DNA of 25,037 nucleotides from positions 1 to 25,037 of the IMG/VR virus record IMGVR_UViG_3300045988_138129. One strand, given 5' to 3'. A program made the position numbers and the translations under genes. Origin of the DNA: a virus. Its lineage: Duplodnaviria > Heunggongvirae > Uroviricota > Caudoviricetes. Below, in pieces: positions 6,978-19,418 of this stretch. Each line of letters starts with the position of its first letter. The stretch's first letter is position 1. The notes below the pieces were generated by a model. That model had not been told where the DNA came from and did no database searches. It was given only the letters and a program-made list of their open reading frames with translations.

Positions 6978-7052
6978 CTTTAATCATCTGAGAATATAAG
7001 ATAGAAATCAATTGATTAGCATAATTTATTTTGAATTTTCATGTTAATAAAT

Positions 7053-7075
7053 AAAAGGCCAGTTATTGGCCTTTT
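7053..7075. terminator. Bidirectional hairpin terminator between convergent S and the S-V cargo gene
   Basis: aaaaGGCCAgttatTGGCCtttt: GC stem flanked by A-run and T-run, so it can serve both strands. Sits between the S stop (6977) and the stop of the minus-strand cargo gene (7080). Confidence 0.7.
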
Positions 7076-7079
7076 ATCA

Positions 7080-8153
7080 TTACTTTCCATTTTTTAATGA
7101 ATTGATTAACGATGCTATTTGCTCAATGCCATCAAATGTAGATGGTATCTTATCATCGGATAGCATGATGTTTGAAAATACTACGTCTTCGAATTTTGAA
7201 AGCGCTTCCGGATTGTTTTTCCTTATCTCTGAGGAATAGTCGCTATAACTCTGAATGAACTGACAAAGGCTCTTTCTGAGTTCTATTTGCATAATCTGAG
7301 TTCGTAACGATATATGATTTAGCAGTACAACTCTAAAGTAATACATGAAAATCAATGTAACTGATGCAAAAGGTAGTGCTGACATAAAATATGTGGCAGC
7401 ATTTGTCGTTTCGAGAGCTGGTAATTTATGCATTCCATAGTATATCAGCGGGGAGGGAATGATTATAGCCAAGATGATAAGAGTTATTCTTGATAGCATG
7501 ATTTCACTTTCTTTCTTTTTGCCAAGTGAATTAAAGCCTTCAAACAATCCAACAAAATTAAATGCGACCTCATACCCTTTTAATGACTCTTTGATTGACT
7601 CTATTTTGGCATGTTGCTCCTTTAAGAAGGAGTCGCACTTTTCGAAAAATTGACGCCCTTCGTTTAAACTATCAATGTATTTTTTATATGTGTCAACATT
7701 GCTGGAGCTTAAAACTTCTTTAACCATTGCTAATGGCAGTTCTCTAAGAGAAAAGTCTATCTGTGCTCTGCTCCGCTCATCGAATTCATTATAGTTATAC
7801 AGAGCAAAATCCTTGATGGTTCTTAGTGGTGAAAAGTGAGACTCTATTTCCGGAGAGAGAATGCTTGGTTCAATGATAAATCTAAAAAAGCAAGTGAATA
7901 TAAGGTTGATGCTGTTGTTATCTTCTCCCTTTTCTCTTAAGAAACTTTTAAAGGTGTCGCCAATCATAGCAATGTTGTACTGGGATTTTTTGTCCCAATC
8001 TTCAGGGTTTTCGGAAATGAAGTTTATTGCTTGAGCAATTATTTTGTTTCTGCTTGATTCAAAGTTTGTGCCGGGAGTCAGCGTGTTCAAAAAGACCAGA
8101 TAATCTTTGAACAATTCTTTCATTGTTTCTGACGAGAAAAAGTAAGTACTCAT
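7080..8153 (-). CDS. Hypothetical two-TM membrane protein in the S-V accessory position; candidate abortive-infection or defense protein
   Basis: Uninterrupted minus-strand ORF, AT-rich by eye. Soluble N-terminal ~240 aa, two hydrophobic helices (LSRITLIILAIIIPSPLIYYG; AATYFMSALPFASVTLIFMYYFRVVLL), C-terminal ~85 aa tail. ATG at 8153 (MSTYFF...) gives 358 aa and avoids overlapping V; alternative starts are GTG at 8249 (389 aa, overlaps V) and ATG at 8123. Confidence 0.75.
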   Translation of the reverse strand: MSTYFFSSETMKELFKDYLVFLNTLTPGTNFESSRNKIIAQAINFISENPEDWDKKSQYNIAMIGDTFKSFLREKGEDNNSINLIFTCFFRFIIEPSILSPEIESHFSPLRTIKDFALYNYNEFDERSRAQIDFSLRELPLAMVKEVLSSSNVDTYKKYIDSLNEGRQFFEKCDSFLKEQHAKIESIKESLKGYEVAFNFVGLFEGFNSLGKKKESEIMLSRITLIILAIIIPSPLIYYGMHKLPALETTNAATYFMSALPFASVTLIFMYYFRVVLLNHISLRTQIMQIELRKSLCQFIQSYSDYSSEIRKNNPEALSKFEDVVFSNIMLSDDKIPSTFDGIEQIASLINSLKNGK

Positions 8154-8239
8154 AATGGATTTTGTTGTCCCTTGTTGTTCTGTGCACCAGAAATCGTGGT
8201 GTGATTTACTTCGAGATTGTACAGAATCATTATTATCGA
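8154..8239. promoter_or_regulatory. Divergent intergenic region, expected site of the V late promoter and of the cargo-gene promoter
   Basis: 86-bp gap between the cargo-gene start (8153, minus) and the V start (8240, plus), containing TTGTTGT...TTGTTCTGT elements. Called from position only. Confidence 0.3.
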
Positions 8240-8869
8240 ATGAATGCACAATACAATGAAATTCTTCGCTTTATACGCAATATGATTCGCACTGGCATTA
8301 TCGTCGAAACCGACCTTAATGCCGGTCGCTGCCGTGTGCAGACCGGCGGCATGTGCACCGACTGGCTTCAGTGGCTGACCCATCGCGCCGGTCGTTCGCG
8401 CACATGGTGGGCACCTTCCGTGGGGGAACAGGTGCTGATTCTGGCCGTGGGCGGTGAACTCGACACGGCGTTCGTTCTGCCGGGGATTTATTCCGGCGAT
8501 AACCCCGCGCCGTCGGCGTCGGCGGATGCCCTGCATATCCGTTTCCCTGACGGGGCGGTGATTGAGTATGAACCTGAAACCAGTGCACTCACGGTAAGCG
8601 GAATTAAAACGGCCAGCGTGACGGCTTCTGATTCTGTTACTGCCACGGTGCCGGTGGTCATGGTGAAAGCATCAACCCGCGTCACCCTGGACACACCGGA
8701 GGTGGTCTGCACCAACAAGCTGATTACCGGCACGCTGGAAGTGCAGAAGGGCGGGACGATGCGCGGCAACATTGAACACACCGGCGGTGAACTTTCATCA
8801 AACGGGAAGGTACTGCATACCCATAAACACCCCGGCGACAGCGGCGGCACAACCGGGAGTCCTCTATGA
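8240..8869 (+). CDS. V: Baseplate spike / assembly protein gpV
   Basis: MNAQYNEILRFIRNMIRTGIIVETDLNAGRCRVQTGGMCTDWLQWLTHRAGRSRTWWAPSVGEQ... matches P2 gpV. The ORF-track start at 8162 is an upstream extension. Confidence 0.93.
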   Translation: MNAQYNEILRFIRNMIRTGIIVETDLNAGRCRVQTGGMCTDWLQWLTHRAGRSRTWWAPSVGEQVLILAVGGELDTAFVLPGIYSGDNPAPSASADALHIRFPDGAVIEYEPETSALTVSGIKTASVTASDSVTATVPVVMVKASTRVTLDTPEVVCTNKLITGTLEVQKGGTMRGNIEHTGGELSSNGKVLHTHKHPGDSGGTTGSPL

Positions 8870-12753: not shown

Positions 12754-13281
12754 ATGCAGCATTTAAAAAATATTACTGCGGGTAATCCCAAAACTGTTGC
12801 CCAATATCAACTGACAAAAAATTTTGATGTTATCTGGTTATGGTCTGAAGACGGAAAAAACTGGTATGAGGAAGTAAGTAATTTTCAGGAAGACACGATA
12901 AAGATTGTTTACGACGAGAATAATATAATTGTCGGCATCACCAGAGATGCTTCAACGCTTAACCCTGAAGGTTTTAGCGTTGTCGAGGTTCCTGATATTA
13001 CCGCCAACCGACGTGCTGATGACTCAGGTAAATGGATGTTTAAGGATGGTGCCGTGATTAAGCGGATTTATACGGCAGACGAACAGCAGCAACTGGCAGA
13101 ATCACAAAAGGCAACTTTACTTTCCGAAGCTGAATCCGTGATTTTGCCGCTGGAGCGCGCTGTCAGGCTGAATATGGCAACAGATGAGGAGCGCAGCCGA
13201 CTGGAAGCATGGGAACGCTACAGCGTTCTGGTCAGTCGTGTGGATCCTGCAAATCCTGAATGGCCGGAAATGCCGCAATAA
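12754..13281 (+). CDS. G: Tail fiber assembly chaperone gpG
   Basis: 175 aa, [41 protein letters not shown]...; Tfa-type fiber assembly protein immediately after H. Confidence 0.9.
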
Positions 13282-13326
13282 GTTGTATGAGCTGACATAC
13301 CTATAGCACAGAGTAAAGTCTAATCT

Positions 13327-13355
13327 GACAGTCCGCTCTGTGCCAAGAGCAGACG
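13327..13355. repeat. Near-palindromic site A (GACAGTCCGCT-ctgtgccaag-AGCAGAC), left boundary of the transporter cassette
   Basis: 7-bp arms GTCCGCT / AGCAGAC with one central mismatch, 10-nt core. Related to sites B (17003) and C (18008). Lies in the 315-bp gap between G and the BetT-like gene. Confidence 0.6.
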
Positions 13356-13596
13356 CTGGTAATTCGTGCCTAATATACTTCACTTAACTTATATCCCAGC
13401 TTTGATACAGATCATACAAATTAAATGCCCCAGTAATTGGCAGGCTGAGTAACTTAAAACTCCTTAGAATATAGGATGATTTGTATCGGCACTCATTCCA
13501 CCATGCATTCCGATTAATCCCGCATAGCCAGTTGAACTTTGCTACTCTGTGAGAGGTAGTACCTTCTATCCAGTGCGGATTTAATTAATGGAATAA

Positions 13597-15600
13597 ATGA
13601 TTATGAGTGAAAATGATACAACCCCAAAGAAGTCTACAAGCCAGGTTAACAAAGCGGTATTCTTTACATCTGCTTTGCTAATTTTCCTTCTTGTCGCCTT
13701 TGCCGCCGTATTCCCGGATGTCGCCGACAAAAATTTTAAACTACTTCAGCAACAAATCTTCACGAATGCCAGCTGGTTCTACATACTTGCTGTGGCCCTG
13801 ATTTTACTGAGCGTCACGTTCCTTGGACTCTCACGTTACGGTGATATAAAGCTGGGCCCAGACCATGCGCAGCCTGATTTCAGCTACCACTCCTGGTTCG
13901 CGATGCTTTTTTCGGCAGGGATGGGGATCGGCCTGATGTTCTTTGGCGTTGCCGAACCTGTGATGCATTATCTTTCGCCACCTGTCGGCACTCCAGAGAC
14001 CGTTGCGGCAGCGAAGGAAGCCATGCGCCTGACGTTCTTCCACTGGGGTCTGCACGCATGGGCAATTTATGCCATCGTGGCGCTGATTCTGGCCTTTTTC
14101 AGTTACCGTCACGGTCTGCCTTTAACGCTGCGTTCTGCGCTCTATCCCATTATCGGCGATCGCATTTACGGGCCTATAGGCCACGCGGTTGATATCTTCG
14201 CCGTGATAGGCACTGTCTTTGGCGTTGCAACATCGCTGGGTTACGGTGTATTGCAGGTGAATGCCGGTTTGAACCATCTTTTCGGCGTGCCCATCAATGA
14301 AACGGTACAGGTCATTTTGATCGTGGTCATCACGGGGTTAGCGACGATTTCGGTGGTGTCCGGCCTGGACAAGGGAATACGCATCCTGTCTGAGCTTAAT
14401 CTGGGCCTGGCGGTGTTGCTCCTGGCGCTGGTCTTGTGCCTGGGTCCCACTGTGCTTCTGCTGAAGTCATTTGTGGAAAATACGGGTGGTTATCTGTCGG
14501 AACTGGTGAGTAAAACGTTCAACCTTTACGCGTATGAACCCAAGTCGAGCAACTGGCTGGGGGGCTGGACATTATTATACTGGGGATGGTGGCTTTCATG
14601 GTCGCCGTTTGTAGGTATGTTCATTGCACGCGTTTCCCGCGGCAGGACAATTCGTGAGTTCGTGACTGGCGTGTTGTTTGTTCCCGCCGGCTTTACGCTC
14701 ATGTGGATGACGGTGTTTGGAAACAGCGCCATCTATCTCATCATGAACCAGGGCGCCACTGACCTCGCCAATACCGTTCAGCAGGATGTTGCGCTTGCCC
14801 TGTTTAATTTCCTGGAGCATTTCCCGTTCTCTTCCGTGCTGTCATTCATTGCAATGGCGATGGTCATCGTCTTCTTTGTAACGTCTGCTGATTCGGGGGC
14901 AATGGTTGTGGATACTCTGGCATCAGGTGGGGTGGCAAACACGCCCGTCTGGCAGCGAATTTTCTGGGCATTGCTCATGGGCGTTGTTGCTATTGCCCTG
15001 CTGATCGCAGGGGGGCTGAGTGCGTTGCAAACCGTAACGATAGCGAGTGCATTGCCCTTCTCAGTTATCTTATTAATATCCATATACGGACTGTTAAAAG
15101 CCCTGCGTCGGGATTTGACCAAGCGTGAAAGCCTTAGCATGGCGACTATTGCTCCTACGGCTGCACGTAACCCAATTCCTTGGCAGAGAAGGTTACGCAA
15201 TATCGCGTATTTGCCGAAGCGCTCTCTTGTGAAACGTTTTATGGACGACATTATCCAACCCGCCATGACGCTGGTTCAGGAGGAACTTAACAAGCAGGGA
15301 ACGATAAGCCACATCAGTGACGCCGCCGAGGATCGTATTCGCCTTGAAGTCGATTTGGGCAACGAGCTGAATTATATATATGAAGTGAGGCTTCGCGGGT
15401 ATAACTCACCGACCTTCGCGCTCGCTGCGCTGGATAATGATGAGCAGCAGAGTGAACAACATCGATATTATCGCGCTGAAGTCTATCTCAAAGAGGGCGG
15501 CCAAAATTATGATGTAATGGGCTGGAATCAGGAACAGCTGATTAATGACATACTGGACCAGTACGAAAAACACCTGCACTTCCTGCATCTGGTTCGTTAA
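13597..15600 (+). CDS. BCCT-family transporter, BetT-like (choline/betaine-type), full length with long C-terminal cytoplasmic domain
   Basis: 667 aa, ~12 hydrophobic helices. BCCT signature GWTLLYWGWWLSWSPFVGMFIARVSRGRTIREF. Conserved blocks resembling BetT at both ends (YGDIKLGP...AMLFSAGMGIGLMFFGVAEPV; QEQLINDILDQYEKHLHFLHL). Alternative start ATG at 13603. Confidence 0.85.
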   Translation: MIMSENDTTPKKSTSQVNKAVFFTSALLIFLLVAFAAVFPDVADKNFKLLQQQIFTNASWFYILAVALILLSVTFLGLSRYGDIKLGPDHAQPDFSYHSWFAMLFSAGMGIGLMFFGVAEPVMHYLSPPVGTPETVAAAKEAMRLTFFHWGLHAWAIYAIVALILAFFSYRHGLPLTLRSALYPIIGDRIYGPIGHAVDIFAVIGTVFGVATSLGYGVLQVNAGLNHLFGVPINETVQVILIVVITGLATISVVSGLDKGIRILSELNLGLAVLLLALVLCLGPTVLLLKSFVENTGGYLSELVSKTFNLYAYEPKSSNWLGGWTLLYWGWWLSWSPFVGMFIARVSRGRTIREFVTGVLFVPAGFTLMWMTVFGNSAIYLIMNQGATDLANTVQQDVALALFNFLEHFPFSSVLSFIAMAMVIVFFVTSADSGAMVVDTLASGGVANTPVWQRIFWALLMGVVAIALLIAGGLSALQTVTIASALPFSVILLISIYGLLKALRRDLTKRESLSMATIAPTAARNPIPWQRRLRNIAYLPKRSLVKRFMDDIIQPAMTLVQEELNKQGTISHISDAAEDRIRLEVDLGNELNYIYEVRLRGYNSPTFALAALDNDEQQSEQHRYYRAEVYLKEGGQNYDVMGWNQEQLINDILDQYEKHLHFLHLVR

Positions 15601-15607
15601 CAGCAAC

Positions 15608-15636
15608 ATGCCGCCACAGAGGCGGCATTTATTTAT
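15608..15636 (+). terminator. Rho-independent terminator after the BetT-like gene
   Basis: ATGCCGCC-acag-GGCGGCAT hairpin followed by TTATTTAT, 8 nt after the stop at 15600. Confidence 0.75.
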
Positions 15637-15663
15637 CCCGGCTGCAATATGAGGGAATGCAGA

Positions 15664-16941
15664 ATGATTTCACGCTGGAAATGGATGCTGAAGCAGACAT
15701 TTAAAAAACTATGGTTCAGGGCAACGTTATTCGCAATTGTCGCAATAATAACGGCCCTTTTATCAATTCTTTTTAAATCAATGATACCTGAGTCGGTTTC
15801 CGTGAAGGTTGGTGCGGAAGCAGTCGATAACATTCTGAACATACTGGCATCGAGTATGCTGGCAGTGACCACATTTTCGCTGAGCATCATGGTCACAGCC
15901 TACGGTTCAGCCACTACTAATGTGACTCCCAGAGCTACTCGTTTAGTTGTTGAAGACGTCACCACACAAAATGTACTGGCCACCTTCATCGGTTCTTTTC
16001 TCTTCAGTCTGGTAGGGATTATTGCCCTCAATATGGGAGCTTATGGAGAAAGGGGGAGAGTCATTTTATTCATTGTAACACTGGTTGTCATTGCCTTAAT
16101 CCTCATCACATTGCTTCGCTGGATACAGCATTTGACCTCTCTGGGGAGGGTTGGTGAGACAACGGCAAAAGTAGAACAGGCGGCCATCGAAACATTTATT
16201 GCGAGAGCAAGAAATCCCTGTCTCGGCGGATATCCATGGCTTGAGAACAATGAACAGCCGAAAGGAACGGTTGCAGTTTATCCGAAAAAGATTGGCTATG
16301 TTGAATATGTTGATATGGTGAAACTCAGCAAGCTGCTGACCAATGATCCCCGTCATGTATACCTCGTGGCGCAGCCGGGCAGTTTCATACATCCGTCCAC
16401 GCCAGTTTTGTACCTGAGTCAGGGCCAGGAGTCATCAATCAGCACCGATTTACTTGAGACGATTATTGTCTCGGATGTACGTTCATTTGCTCAGGACCCC
16501 CGATTTTGTCTTAGCGTCATGGCCGAAATAGCCTGCCGAGCCCTTTCCCCCGCAGTGAACGATCCTGGAACCGCCATTGATGTCATTGGCAGAGGTGTAC
16601 GTATACTTTCCGCTTACGCGCAGAATAAATCTGATGAAATAGAAGTGAAATATCCTTCTGTACATGTTGCACCACTTCAGAATAACGATCTACTTGAAGA
16701 CTTTTTCTCACCTGTTGCGCGCGATGGTGCCAGTATGAGGGAAATTCAGATAAGGGTCCTTAAAGGACTGTCGATGCTGAGTAAGGGTTGGCCTGGAATT
16801 TTTGCTGAAGCCGCACAAACCCTAGCATTTGAAACATTAGAGCATGCTACTCGTGCTGACCATATAGATTCTGACAGATATCTAATAAAATCAATTTATT
16901 ATAATTTATTTAGTGGCGAAGATTCTAATAAAAAACCATAG
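15664..16941 (+). CDS. Membrane protein with four N-terminal TM helices and a large cytoplasmic domain; DUF2254-like (family assignment from memory, uncertain)
   Basis: GAGGG RBS before the ATG at 15664 (MISRWKWMLKQ...); the ORF-track start at 15649 is less likely. Four hydrophobic helices in the first ~160 aa. Conserved-looking block SFAQDPRFCLSVMAEIACRALSPAVNDPGTAIDVIGRG. Confidence 0.75.
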   Translation: MISRWKWMLKQTFKKLWFRATLFAIVAIITALLSILFKSMIPESVSVKVGAEAVDNILNILASSMLAVTTFSLSIMVTAYGSATTNVTPRATRLVVEDVTTQNVLATFIGSFLFSLVGIIALNMGAYGERGRVILFIVTLVVIALILITLLRWIQHLTSLGRVGETTAKVEQAAIETFIARARNPCLGGYPWLENNEQPKGTVAVYPKKIGYVEYVDMVKLSKLLTNDPRHVYLVAQPGSFIHPSTPVLYLSQGQESSISTDLLETIIVSDVRSFAQDPRFCLSVMAEIACRALSPAVNDPGTAIDVIGRGVRILSAYAQNKSDEIEVKYPSVHVAPLQNNDLLEDFFSPVARDGASMREIQIRVLKGLSMLSKGWPGIFAEAAQTLAFETLEHATRADHIDSDRYLIKSIYYNLFSGEDSNKKP

Positions 16942-17002
16942 TTGCGGAGCAAGCGATACGGTTGTTGGCAAGTCAAGGGCAAAGCATTCGCGTGAGAGTG
17001 GG

Positions 17003-17027
17003 CGTCTGCTTTGTGCCAACAGCGGAC
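17003..17027. repeat. Near-palindromic site B (GTCTGCT-ttgtgccaac-AGCGGAC), between the convergent DUF2254-like and HNH genes
   Basis: Core 8/10 identical to site A in direct orientation. Its arms are the reciprocal variants of site A's arms (A: GTCCGCT/AGCAGAC; B: GTCTGCT/AGCGGAC). Confidence 0.6.
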
Positions 17028-17081
17028 ATTATAGATGGTATATGTAGAAAGTGAACATGCGTAGATTGTATGATTTAGCCG

Positions 17082-17891
17082 TCACTTAATTATTGGATAA
17101 CTCACACAAGTATGACCGTTGCTTATCGCATACATTTGGTTTCCCTTAAGATTTACAAATGGAAATGTCGTATACTCATAATTTATAGAGGTCATATTAA
17201 ATGTAAGGAATTTATCTTCAAGTTCTAATTTTGTAGAGTGGGCAGGGTATGTTCCTTCATTTCTCATTGTGATAATAAAACCGATAGGAAAAAAATGTAA
17301 AGCACAAATAAATGCCACATGTCCTTCGTTCATAAATGCTACACTTTGAGCGGATATGTGCATTCTGTGTGGGTAAAACCAGTAGTAAATATCATGAGTT
17401 TCCTCAAAACTTGAATTTTTACCCAAAACATAATCCTTTAAAGGTGTATAGAAGGGGCTATCTACGGGTTCTTTTTTACAATCTTCAACTGAAGTTGCTG
17501 ATAGCACGTGCCCAATCATAGCCTTAGTGAAAGATATGCTATCAAAAGGTATTCTAATGAATGGATATACATTCATACCATTCATATATCGACTTAACTG
17601 TTCTTTAAAGGACTTTGTTACATTTTCAATTGCAACATCGAGCCCACCTAATACCTTATTGTTACAGTGGCTGCAAATGGTTCTGAAATAAGAGCCATTT
17701 TTAGCATTTAATGGTTTAACTGGTTCCTGAATACCAAAAAATTCGCTAACTGTTTTCTGCAAAACAGGGCCTAAGGTTATGGCGCACTTTGGAGGAACAT
17801 GATCTTTTGTGAGCAAGCCATATTTCCCACAAATATTGCAATAACCTTCAGTAATGCCATTGTGCTTCCATCGTTCACTAATTTTCGTCAT
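17082..17891 (-). CDS. HNH endonuclease-domain protein (N-terminal HNH motif, C-terminal domain of unknown function)
   Basis: 269 aa, AT-rich, GAGGGA RBS before the ATG at 17891. Motif C-N-I-C-G-x9-D-H-V-P-P-K ... N-x12-C-S-H-C-N-N-K fits the CxxC...(D/H)H..P...N...CxxC(N)xK HNH zinc-finger nuclease pattern. Confidence 0.78.
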   Translation of the reverse strand: MTKISERWKHNGITEGYCNICGKYGLLTKDHVPPKCAITLGPVLQKTVSEFFGIQEPVKPLNAKNGSYFRTICSHCNNKVLGGLDVAIENVTKSFKEQLSRYMNGMNVYPFIRIPFDSISFTKAMIGHVLSATSVEDCKKEPVDSPFYTPLKDYVLGKNSSFEETHDIYYWFYPHRMHISAQSVAFMNEGHVAFICALHFFPIGFIITMRNEGTYPAHSTKLELEDKFLTFNMTSINYEYTTFPFVNLKGNQMYAISNGHTCVSYPIIK

Positions 17892-18007
17892 TTTTATTCC
17901 CTCAGTAGCATAAGCTATCTATACGTTTTTTAATCCTATCAAAGATACAACTTAACGTCAGGAAAATGATAGTGTTTATCTAAGTAATACAATTAACTTC
18001 AACGCGT

Positions 18008-18039
18008 GACAGTCTGCTTTTCGCTCAAAGCAGACTGTC
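18008..18039. repeat. Perfect palindrome site C (GACAGTCTGCTTT-tcgctc-AAAGCAGACTGTC) upstream of the HNH gene
   Basis: 13-bp perfect inverted arms around a 6-nt centre. The arms share the GACAGTC(T/C)GCT...AGCAGAC sequence with sites A and B. No T-run follows, so it is not a classic terminator; it could be a recombination site or operator. Confidence 0.65.
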
Positions 18040-18103
18040 AGATTTGATAGCGTTTTGGCTATGTAAATTGTCAGTCGGAAAATGAGTGAGTACAAACTAG
18101 GAC

Positions 18104-18128
18104 AGGCGGGCGAATTGCCCGCCTTTTC
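18104..18128 (+). terminator. Rho-independent terminator (plus orientation) just upstream of the FI promoter region
   Basis: AGGCGGGC-gaatt-GCCCGCCT hairpin followed by TTTTCT. Confidence 0.7.
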
Positions 18129-18227
18129 TGTATCTGTTGTTTCATCCACTGACCAGACAGATCAAATAGCGTCTCATGCTCTGTACAACAGAAAATAGTT
18201 GCACCCATTAACCACGGAGTTAAACGG
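18129..18227 (+). promoter_or_regulatory. Expected late promoter region for the FI-FII-E-T-U-D operon
   Basis: Called from position: the ~100 bp upstream of FI after the terminator, containing a TGTTGTTTCATCC...CCAGACAGA element. I could not confirm an exact match to the late-promoter dyad I recall from the P2 literature. Confidence 0.3.
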
Positions 18228-19418
18228 ATGAGTGACTATCATCACGGCGTGCAGGTGCTGGAGATTAACGACGGCACCCGCGTCATTTCAACCGTATCCA
18301 CCGCCATTGTCGGCATGGTCTGCACGGCCAGCGATGCGGATGCGGAAACCTTCCCCCTCAATAAACCGGTGCTGATTACCAATGTGCAGAGCGCAATTGC
18401 AAAGGCCGGTAAAAAAGGCACGCTGGCGGCATCGTTGCAGGCCATCGCTGACCAGTCAAAACCGGTCACCGTTGTTGTGCGCGTGGAAGACGGCACCGGC
18501 GACGACGAAGAAACGAAACTCGCGCAGACCGTTTCCAATATCATCGGCACCACCGACGAAAACGGTCAGTACACCGGACTGAAAGCCCTGCTGGCGGCGG
18601 AGTCGGTAACCGGTGTTAAACCGCGTATTCTCGGCGTACCGGGACTGGATACCAAAGAGGTGGCTGTTGCACTGGCATCAGTCTGTCAGAAGTTGCGCGC
18701 TTTCGGGTATATCAGCGCATGGGGCTGTAAAACCATTTCCGAGGTGAAAGCTTACCGCCAGAATTTCAGCCAGCGTGAGCTGATGGTCATCTGGCCGGAT
18801 TTCCTCGCATGGGATACGGTCACCAGTACCACCGCCACCGCGTATGCTACCGCCCGTGCGCTGGGTCTGCGTGCCAAAATCGACCAGGAGCAGGGCTGGC
18901 ATAAAACGCTGTCCAACGTCGGGGTGAACGGTGTTACCGGCATCAGCGCATCTGTATTCTGGGATTTGCAGGAGTCCGGCACCGATGCTGACCTGCTTAA
19001 CGAGTCAGGCGTCACAACACTGATTCGCCGTGACGGTTTCCGCTTCTGGGGTAACCGTACCTGCTCTGATGACCCGCTGTTCCTCTTTGAAAACTACACC
19101 CGCACCGCACAGGTACTGGCCGACACGATGGCTGAGGCGCACATGTGGGCGGTGGACAAGCCCATCACCGCAACGCTGATTCGTGACATCGTTGACGGCA
19201 TCAATGCCAAATTCCGTGAGCTGAAAACAAACGGCTATATCGTGGATGCGACCTGCTGGTTTAGCGAAGAATCCAACGATGCGGAAACCCTCAAGGCCGG
19301 AAAACTGTATATCGACTACGACTATACCCCGGTGCCTCCTCTTGAAAACCTGACCCTGCGCCAGCGTATCACCGATAAATACCTGGCAAATCTGGTCACC
19401 TCGGTTAACAGCAATTAA
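18228..19418 (+). CDS. FI: Tail sheath protein gpFI
   Basis: 396 aa, MSDYHHGVQVLEINDGTRVISTVSTAIVGMVCTASDADAETFPLNKPVLITNVQ...; contractile tail sheath of P2 type. Confidence 0.95.
   Translation: MSDYHHGVQVLEINDGTRVISTVSTAIVGMVCTASDADAETFPLNKPVLITNVQSAIAKAGKKGTLAASLQAIADQSKPVTVVVRVEDGTGDDEETKLAQTVSNIIGTTDENGQYTGLKALLAAESVTGVKPRILGVPGLDTKEVAVALASVCQKLRAFGYISAWGCKTISEVKAYRQNFSQRELMVIWPDFLAWDTVTSTTATAYATARALGLRAKIDQEQGWHKTLSNVGVNGVTGISASVFWDLQESGTDADLLNESGVTTLIRRDGFRFWGNRTCSDDPLFLFENYTRTAQVLADTMAEAHMWAVDKPITATLIRDIVDGINAKFRELKTNGYIVDATCWFSEESNDAETLKAGKLYIDYDYTPVPPLENLTLRQRITDKYLANLVTSVNSN

Follow-up and report, generated by a model that had tools for sequence, protein, structure and literature searches.

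The cargo island between genes G and FI of a P2-like prophage as the probable content of a site-specific cassette docking site

Genes and 24-bp sites between G and FI

The DNA considered here is a 25,037-nucleotide stretch of a tailed-phage genome (Caudoviricetes; positions 1 to 25,037 of IMG/VR virus record IMGVR_UViG_3300045988_138129), referred to below at its full length as the window, which represents the late region of a P2-like prophage. Open reading frame (ORF) and Pfam searches placed the tail fibre gene H, the tail fibre assembly gene G and the tail sheath gene FI in the window and, between the last two, an island of three genes, which encode a BCCT transporter, a DUF2254 membrane protein and, on the opposite strand, a 269-aa protein with an HNH-like motif (Table 1). 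The coordinates and gene content of this interval had been given correctly in an earlier description drawn from the sequence alone (hereafter the original prediction), and its view of the island as cargo at the G-FI hotspot of P2 is borne out both by the location of the insert and by the conserved inverted-repeat sites that flank it. The island was also described as AT-rich, which holds strongly for the gene of the 269-aa protein (GC content 0.35) but not for the BCCT gene (0.47-0.55) or the DUF2254 gene (0.44-0.47), the phage backbone lying at about 0.55-0.59. Similarly, extra genes are indeed present at G-FI, but they are not set apart from the known Z/fun position, as had been supposed, since the island occupies that position itself. 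The Z/fun insert of P2 lies at the same G-FI locus (Nilsson, Karlsson and Haggard-Ljungquist 2004, Mol Biol Evol 21:1) and has an a-like site and a b-site, as defined below, at the same positions as in the window; the cargo of the window, at 4.7 kb, is far larger than fun and is not a recognised exclusion gene.

Table 1. Features of the G-FI interval of the window and its immediate flanks
Feature	Position	Strand	Basis
P2 gene G (tail fibre assembly), left backbone flank	12754..13281	+	Pfam Caudo_TAP, 9.4e-35
Site a1, putative left docking site: GTCCGCTCT-GTGCCA-AGAGCAGAC	13331..13354	+	Exact pattern match
BetT-subfamily BCCT transporter, 667 aa (RefSeq start two codons later, 665 aa)	13597..15600	+	Pfam BCCT, NCBIfam BetT
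Terminator-like GC hairpin and T-run between the BCCT and DUF2254 genes	15608..15628	+	8-bp stem, 6 GC pairs, tail TTATTTAT; pattern scan
DUF2254 membrane protein, 430-aa ORF (RefSeq start 15664, 425 aa)	15649..16941	+	Pfam DUF2254, 1.6e-92
Site a2, boundary between the two cassettes: GTCTGCTTT-GTGCCA-ACAGCGGAC	17004..17027	+	Exact pattern match
269-aa protein, Zn-ribbon/HNH-like motif, separate cassette	17082..17891	-	ORF; motif CxxC...DHVPP...CxxCN
Site b, putative right docking site: GTCTGCTTT-TCGCTC-AAAGCAGAC	18012..18035	+	Exact pattern match
Strong intrinsic-terminator-like hairpin, phage backbone, upstream of FI	18104..18124	+	9-bp stem, 7 GC pairs, then TTTCTGT
P2 gene FI (tail sheath), right backbone flank	18228..19418	+	Pfam Phage_sheath_1, Phage_sheath_1C, Gp18_domIII_N

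The sites share a 24-bp pattern in which the arms GTCYGCnnn and nnnGCRGAC enclose a 6-bp spacer, either GTGCCA (type 'a') or TCGCTC (type 'b'). The window holds three exact matches, against a chance expectation from shuffled sequences of 0.24 matches per window even with one mismatch allowed, and these fall at the left end of the island (a1), at the boundary between the DUF2254 gene and the gene of the 269-aa protein (a2), and at the right end (b). The island thus consists of two separate cassettes, the BCCT-DUF2254 pair and the gene of the 269-aa protein, bounded by three sites, and the suggestion that the three genes form one architecture does not hold, as they are split by a2 and occur independently elsewhere. 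With conserved inverted arms of 7 bp and an asymmetric 6-bp spacer, across which arms are swapped in natural recombinants, the sites have the organization of core-type recombination sites.

The arms of the two outer sites are of different provenance. The left arm of a1, GTCCGCTCT, is of the phage type found in pro147, 12474III and R18C, and its right arm, AGAGCAGAC, is of the cargo type found on two plasmids (L001 and L002) and in a lambdoid prophage (L003) that carry the same island. Conversely, the left arm of site b, GTCTGCTTT, is of the cargo type and always accompanies the cassette of the 269-aa protein, including on plasmids, and the right arm, AAAGCAGAC, is of the phage type found in P2 and phage 899. 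Such phage/cargo hybrids are what would be expected from crossovers inside the two outer spacers. The internal site a2 is a crossover point in the rearrangement that distinguishes the two plasmids, and decayed copies of it are found 3' of the DUF2254 gene in an island of E. coli NCTC86 and on a Klebsiella plasmid.

The same sites in other phages, plasmids and islands

In P2, 12474III, R18C and phage 899, G is followed at a distance of 62 nt by an a-type site and FI is preceded at about 200 nt by a b-type site, and phage 899 carries two tandem a-cargo-b units in the interval. An exact-match scan of IMG/VR for a-sites gave at least 120 contigs; among the 120 listed, the a-site lay in a P2 tail context in 31, in a lambdoid DUF977/hokD context in 35 and elsewhere in 54. 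Twenty of the listed contigs hold both G and FI, and in 19 of these an a-site lies about 50-90 nt past the end of the G match, a frequency biased upward because the sample was chosen by its a-site; a b-site precedes FI in 12 of the 20, and the cargo intervals measure 1.2-3.6 kb. The cassette of the 269-aa protein occurs alone, at 99.6% identity, both at the P2 G-FI position (L168) and between the DUF977 gene and hokD of lambdoid prophages (L167, L192 and others), and the BCCT-DUF2254 unit was found in six lambdoid contigs. Comparison of the G-FI interval across P2-like phages delimits the insertion by a/b sites and separates the gene of the 269-aa protein from the transporter pair. In phage pro147, where that gene is the only one between G and FI, the a-site and the cassette are present and the b-site is absent (L004 4293-4303), about 67 bp equivalent to positions 17978-18044 of the window having been deleted, a loss that would fix the cassette in place.

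Beyond P2-like phages, complete E. coli genomes were searched, and positions 13328-18036 of the window proved 99.8-99.9% identical to sequences on the IncF qnrS1 plasmids L001 and L002 and in the Rac/Qin-type lambdoid prophage L003, where the block lies between a DUF977 gene and hokD. The identity begins at a1 and ends at site b, and in all three places the island is accompanied by two more genes, one for a 200-aa protein annotated as 'site-specific integrase' and one for a 476-aa protein. The original prediction had held that finding the three genes contiguous outside a phage context would point to an assembly chimera. They are literally found so on these plasmids, but the inference is wrong, for the limits of the shared segment coincide exactly with recombination sites, which indicates real mobility. 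The 476-aa protein, for which no Pfam, NCBIfam or PADLOC match was found, occupies its own a...b cassette beside the recombinase gene on the plasmids (L001 13923-15353; L002 12228-13658) and in lambdoid prophages.

The two plasmids also record a rearrangement. They are otherwise 99.7-99.98% identical, and the cassettes of the 269-aa and 476-aa proteins have been swapped between them. Each of the four junctions is a 24-bp site at which left and right arms have been exchanged exactly across the 6-bp spacer, the parental sequences sharing only 7-9 nt. Homology of this length is too short for RecA-type recombination, and the exchange of arms across the spacer matches the footprint of a tyrosine-recombinase crossover. 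The order in L002 can be derived from that in L001 by excision of a circle through an a x a crossover, followed by re-integration through b x b.

An array is also found in a genomic island of E. coli Nissle and reads a, hypothetical gene, b, recombinase gene, a, ETEC_3214, b, a homologue of the gene of the 269-aa protein, b, a, a TonB receptor gene with an ABC iron-uptake operon, and b. The last of these cassettes holds the gene of a TonB-dependent receptor and a three-gene ABC iron-uptake operon in 5.7 kb between an a-site and a b-site (L009 12751-18494), so that the system carries ordinary fitness genes beside candidate defence genes. In the Qin prophage of E. coli K-12 MG1655, an a-type site, GTCCGCTTT-GTGCCA-GGAGCAGCC, lies inside the annotated ydfV (L224 4982-5005), and the sequences on either side of the plasmid array correspond to the relBE side and to the flxA-ydfW spacer of Qin. 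This correspondence suggests that flxA sits in a docking site of this kind, perhaps as a cassette, and ydfV may have been mis-called as an ORF across a recombination site.

A candidate recombinase and the proposed exchange mechanism

Over all the loci that were fetched, 2.79 Mb in total, 288 of the 388 sites defined by their arms have one of the two spacers. Adjacent sites are co-oriented in 180 cases and opposed in 2, and a composite junction in which a b-site is followed after 18 nt by an a-site occurs as 31 distinct 66-mers.

The gene that accompanies these sites encodes a tyrosine recombinase of 200 aa comprising the catalytic domain only (Pfam Phage_integrase, 1e-17). The protein is distantly Xer-like and falls below every curated NCBIfam threshold; against the integron-integrase model NF011946 it scores 12.5 bits, the cut-off being 435. 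E. coli carries the gene in 885 of 5,426 complete genomes, and among species-representative genomes there are more than 546 confirmed matches to relatives with 61-95% identity in Gamma- and Betaproteobacteria. In Enterobacterales a b-site with the right arm ATAAGGGAC consistently lies upstream of the gene, the ATG following about 60 nt downstream of the start of the site, and downstream there is a hairpin, the 3' half of which doubles as the left arm of an a-site. Arrays within 20 kb of the gene contain 3-8 a/b sites, co-oriented with it. In distant Proteobacteria the half-site AGCRGAC is enriched about 9-fold within 120 nt past the stop codon of the recombinase gene (13 of 78 loci, where about 1.4 would be expected). 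From this association we infer that the 200-aa recombinase acts on the a/b sites.

These observations can be brought together in a mechanism that we consider probable, in which the G-FI island fills a site-specific cassette docking site, its cargo being a fitness module together with an unrelated cassette. The P2 backbone would carry two core-type sites, a just after G and b about 200 nt before FI, and the cargo between them would be replaceable by double exchange (a x a and b x b) with a replicon carrying the same pair of sites; as an alternative route, an excised circle would integrate at one site. Given the identity of 99.9%, the block a-[BCCT-DUF2254]-a-[269 aa]-b would most likely have been copied recently from a cassette array of the Qin/Rac-type lambdoid or the IncF type. 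The 200-aa recombinase, encoded in such arrays between a b-site and an a-site, would act in trans, as there is no copy of its gene in the window. A broader proposal is that the a/b sites and the recombinase constitute a widespread, hitherto uncharacterised, integron-like platform with two heterospecific sites, serving the Z/fun position of P2, the DUF977-hokD position (including flxA of K-12), islands such as that of Nissle, and plasmids; here we see the chances as about even.

Several points weigh against the docking-site mechanism or leave it incomplete. The recombinase that would carry it out is missing from the window and is tied to the sites by genomic association. The BCCT-DUF2254 unit of the window is flanked by two a-sites and not by an a-site and a b-site, and a copy of the pair in an Enterobacter prophage has no left site, so that the history of its capture is incomplete. 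A prophage with the island is about 3.6 kb longer than one with an insert of the size of Z/fun. As to the cargo, the identity of only 42% to BetT makes any substrate assigned to the transporter tentative, and the DUF2254 protein may yet have a role in phage exclusion.

A different view of the enzyme is that the sites are real but are used by another recombinase of the host or of a mobile element, of the Xer or the shufflon type, the 200-aa protein being a mere passenger. This view, which we regard as unlikely, draws on the link between recombinase and sites being one of position and not of function, and on the P2-like phages, which have the sites but among whose records none encodes a close relative of the recombinase. 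Moreover, in the a-sites the spacer GTGCCA is followed by A or G, and the central GTGCCA(A) resembles the 7-bp core of the sfx sites on which Rci acts in the R64 shufflon, a likeness that is possibly a coincidence. Against it stand the position of the recombinase gene, fixed relative to a b-site and an a-site across several genera of Enterobacterales, the half-site enrichment in distant Proteobacteria, and the sites themselves, which have no evident resemblance to E. coli dif.

The proposed system has points in common with several known ones. As in integrons, a tyrosine recombinase lies beside an array of co-oriented cassettes whose cargo includes defence and fitness genes, and the recombinase-less sites of P2, presumably served in trans, resemble the clusters of attC sites lacking an integrase (CALINs). 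Unlike IntI, the associated enzyme has 200 aa and the catalytic domain only, and unlike attC sites, which are used as folded single strands, the a/b sites are 24-bp double-strand palindromes with two alternating fixed spacers. The cassettes also point either way and appear to have expression signals of their own, again unlike those of integrons. The pdif (Xer) modules of Acinetobacter plasmids are likewise discrete units that move between replicons, and the short sites at their ends have the same plan of two arms around a 6-bp spacer. They depend on the host XerC/XerD and have 11-bp arms and sites of alternating orientation; the a/b system differs in its conserved arms of 7 bp, co-orientation, two spacer classes and associated dedicated recombinase. 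A further analogy is the recombinase-mediated exchange of cassettes engineered around heterospecific lox or FRT sites, where two sites with incompatible spacers and one enzyme allow a double exchange that swaps the cargo only; that is a laboratory design, and the a/b arrangement would be a natural counterpart.

The contents of the cargo hotspots of P2-like prophages turn over so fast that phages with the same core genes differ in their cargo. How genes pass between P2 and unrelated elements such as plasmids is described as unknown in a 2026 survey covering thousands of P2 and P4 elements, transposons being rare at the hotspots and homologous recombination lacking flanking homology; it mentions neither the sites nor the recombinase (PMC13586616). 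The general idea of inverted repeats at the G-FI hotspot is already published, such repeats having been reported in 2004 according to the one-sentence summary in a review (PMC8987985). In the literature searched, where the 2004 work is represented by that review alone, no paper was found that gives the site sequences or describes the logic of the two spacers, the arrays or the putative recombinase. The evidence points to a concrete mechanism for one hotspot, with two heterospecific sites in the backbone and a small recombinase acting in trans. If correct, it would account for near-identical cargo in unrelated elements and supply the missing mechanism for the shuttling of defence and fitness genes between them; it would also offer a simple sequence rule for delimiting cassettes, and hence for finding new defence and fitness genes, and possibly a compact natural tool for cassette exchange.

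The cargo and the remaining alternatives

The transporter gene encodes, as originally predicted, a full-length BetT-like BCCT protein, which covers positions 1-485 of the 485 of Pfam PF02028 (3.3e-199) and scores 751.8 bits over residues 10-667 against the BetT subfamily model NF007399 (cut-off 695). It aligns with the choline:H+ symporter BetT of E. coli K-12 from end to end, through residue 667 and including the C-terminal cytoplasmic regulatory domain; the identity is only 42%, and the gene shows no linkage to betIBA, its constant partner being DUF2254. The four-transmembrane DUF2254-like protein of the original prediction is likewise upheld by a match to PF10011 (310.6 bits against a cut-off of 28.8, model positions 3-366 of 368) and by four hydrophobic N-terminal segments, as is the terminator between the two genes by the terminator-like hairpin listed in Table 1. 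A structure model of the DUF2254 protein gave no informative fold match, and the literature searched gave no function.

The pair is found at the same spacing in a lambdoid prophage of Enterobacter asburiae (88% DNA identity), followed by an a-site, a DUF2971 gene and a b-site, and in the chromosomes of Lelliottia and Leclercia (76-77% DNA identity), where it lies among ordinary chromosomal genes without sites. In Serratia, Pantoea and Alcanivorax, whose DUF2254 genes are more distant, no BCCT gene adjoins them, and the pairing is confined to one clade of Enterobacteriaceae (DNA identity of at least 76%), so that synteny makes a functional coupling of the two proteins no more than possible. Within E. 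coli the pair is present in 1,966 of the 5,426 complete genomes (36%), most copies being a 94% allele in an insertion sequence (IS)-rich island adjoining fec, with a decayed a-site still 3' of the DUF2254 gene. In many E. coli chromosomes, including that of the K-12/B hybrid RR1, this allele is truncated within DUF2254 (coverage ends at query base 2645), which suggests recurrent decay of the DUF2254 gene with retention of the transporter. The pair also occurs on 1,531 plasmids of PLSDB, mostly conjugative and 1,266 of them from Klebsiella; on the one inspected, an IncFIB/FII plasmid of Klebsiella pneumoniae (L223), it is flanked by IS elements and adjoins a sil copper/silver resistance cluster. 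The pair is thus a very common accessory module of Enterobacteriaceae that has been captured as a cassette and is here phage-borne; its source would have been a chromosomal two-gene module. Most likely it would enable the lysogen to take up additional choline, betaine or a related compound.

The family of the 269-aa protein is represented in Gammaproteobacteria by 93 sequence clusters, and C20, D29-H30-V31-P32-P33, C72, C75-N76 and G126-H127 are invariant in it and C17 nearly so. It had been called an HNH-nuclease protein, AT-rich and on the opposite strand; the strand, the composition and an HNH-like motif are as described, but neither a curated HNH family nor a fold supports the name. No Pfam (E <= 0.01), NCBIfam or PADLOC match was obtained at normal thresholds. 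With the threshold relaxed to E <= 10 it reaches 11.6 bits against HNH_5, the cut-off being 27.5, and sub-threshold matches to that model were found in 21 of 30 family members, the best with E = 0.0045. A model made with AF2 (AlphaFold2), of high confidence (predicted local distance difference test, pLDDT, 90.7), showed no fold match in the PDB, and no HNH beta-beta-alpha-metal fold was detected in it; the two halves of the motif stand farther apart than in typical HNH domains. The protein is possibly a metal-dependent nuclease, HNH-like at the level of the motif, and a defence nuclease would be a plausible form of it.

Two alternatives had been offered for the island as a whole, namely lysogenic conversion through osmoprotectant uptake and an undescribed exclusion system. 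The former fits the transporter pair better. The latter, in its strict form, would make the three proteins a single anti-phage or superinfection-exclusion system in a defence hotspot of P2, and it has circumstances in its favour: P2 fun sits at G-FI, a known position for anti-phage cargo (PMC8987985, PMC9122126), the DUF2254 protein and the 269-aa protein are without assigned function, and the same prophage carries, at the A-Q hotspot, a gene for a DUF4238 protein, a DUF4238 protein from that hotspot being protective against T7 (PMC9122126). Nevertheless, we judge it improbable. The genes part at a recombination site and occur independently, the gene of the 269-aa protein standing alone at G-FI (pro147 and IMG/VR contigs) and in lambdoid prophages, and the pair residing in chromosomes without sites and on Klebsiella plasmids, in the copy inspected beside metal-resistance genes. 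Hidden Markov model searches matched the BCCT and DUF2254 families and no defence model for any island protein: a search of PADLOC-DB 2.0 at E <= 1 gave no match for the three proteins, the recombinase or the 476-aa protein, and the matches of the island proteins in PHROGs were only to function-unknown families near-identical to the query. In addition, the same cassette system carries plainly non-defence cargo, as in the iron-uptake operon of Nissle. The island is therefore not supported as a new defence architecture.

It might also be argued that the palindromes are terminators or structural repeats, and that the island was moved by homologous, illegitimate or IS-mediated recombination. The sites are, after all, GC-rich intergenic hairpins, a2 lies between convergent genes, and IS26, IS1 and IS3 flank many of the plasmid and island copies of the pair. 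The architecture of the sites makes this very improbable. Among the collected sites, where the search held the spacer fixed, the outer positions of the arms are mostly complementary (0.67-0.99 for a, 0.40-0.96 for b), and the two arm positions beside the spacer are near chance (0.24-0.44). An RNA hairpin would be expected to show the reverse and is thereby disfavoured; what would be the loop is constant and what would be the inner stem does not pair. No T-run follows the sites, and none of them was called a terminator in the pattern scan. The crossovers with precise half-site exchange within 7-9 nt of identity, the near-uniform co-orientation and the fixed b-18 nt-a geometry speak against it as well, and the island in the window is without IS elements.

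That the island is an assembly chimera of a prophage and a plasmid or other region, a reading to which the contiguous occurrence of the same three genes on plasmids without phage genes might lend itself, is scarcely conceivable and was rejected, because the island recurs in the same P2 context, at 100% identity and with identical junctions, in four complete RefSeq assemblies of three unrelated E. coli strains, in one of them inside an otherwise complete P2-like prophage adjoining yegQ, and because its boundaries coincide with recombination sites whose half-sites are hybrid.

Other features of the prophage may be added. The terminator-like hairpin upstream of FI lies outside the region shared with the plasmids in the alignment. 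A second low-GC insert (7080-8249, minus strand, GC content 0.33-0.36) lies between a tail-completion gene and the baseplate gene V, the orf30 position of P2, and encodes a 389-aa ORF (347 aa in RefSeq), which matches only the function-unknown PHROG phrog_9373 and gave no match in Pfam or, at E <= 1, in PADLOC. A perfect 11-bp hairpin stands beside it at 7051-7077; a search around the insert for sites of the a/b type found none, and its route of arrival therefore differs from that of the G-FI island. The DUF4238 gene mentioned above lies outside the window, between gene A and the portal gene Q (L226 3458-4387). With A-Q, orf30 and G-FI all filled, all three classical cargo positions of P2 are occupied in this prophage.

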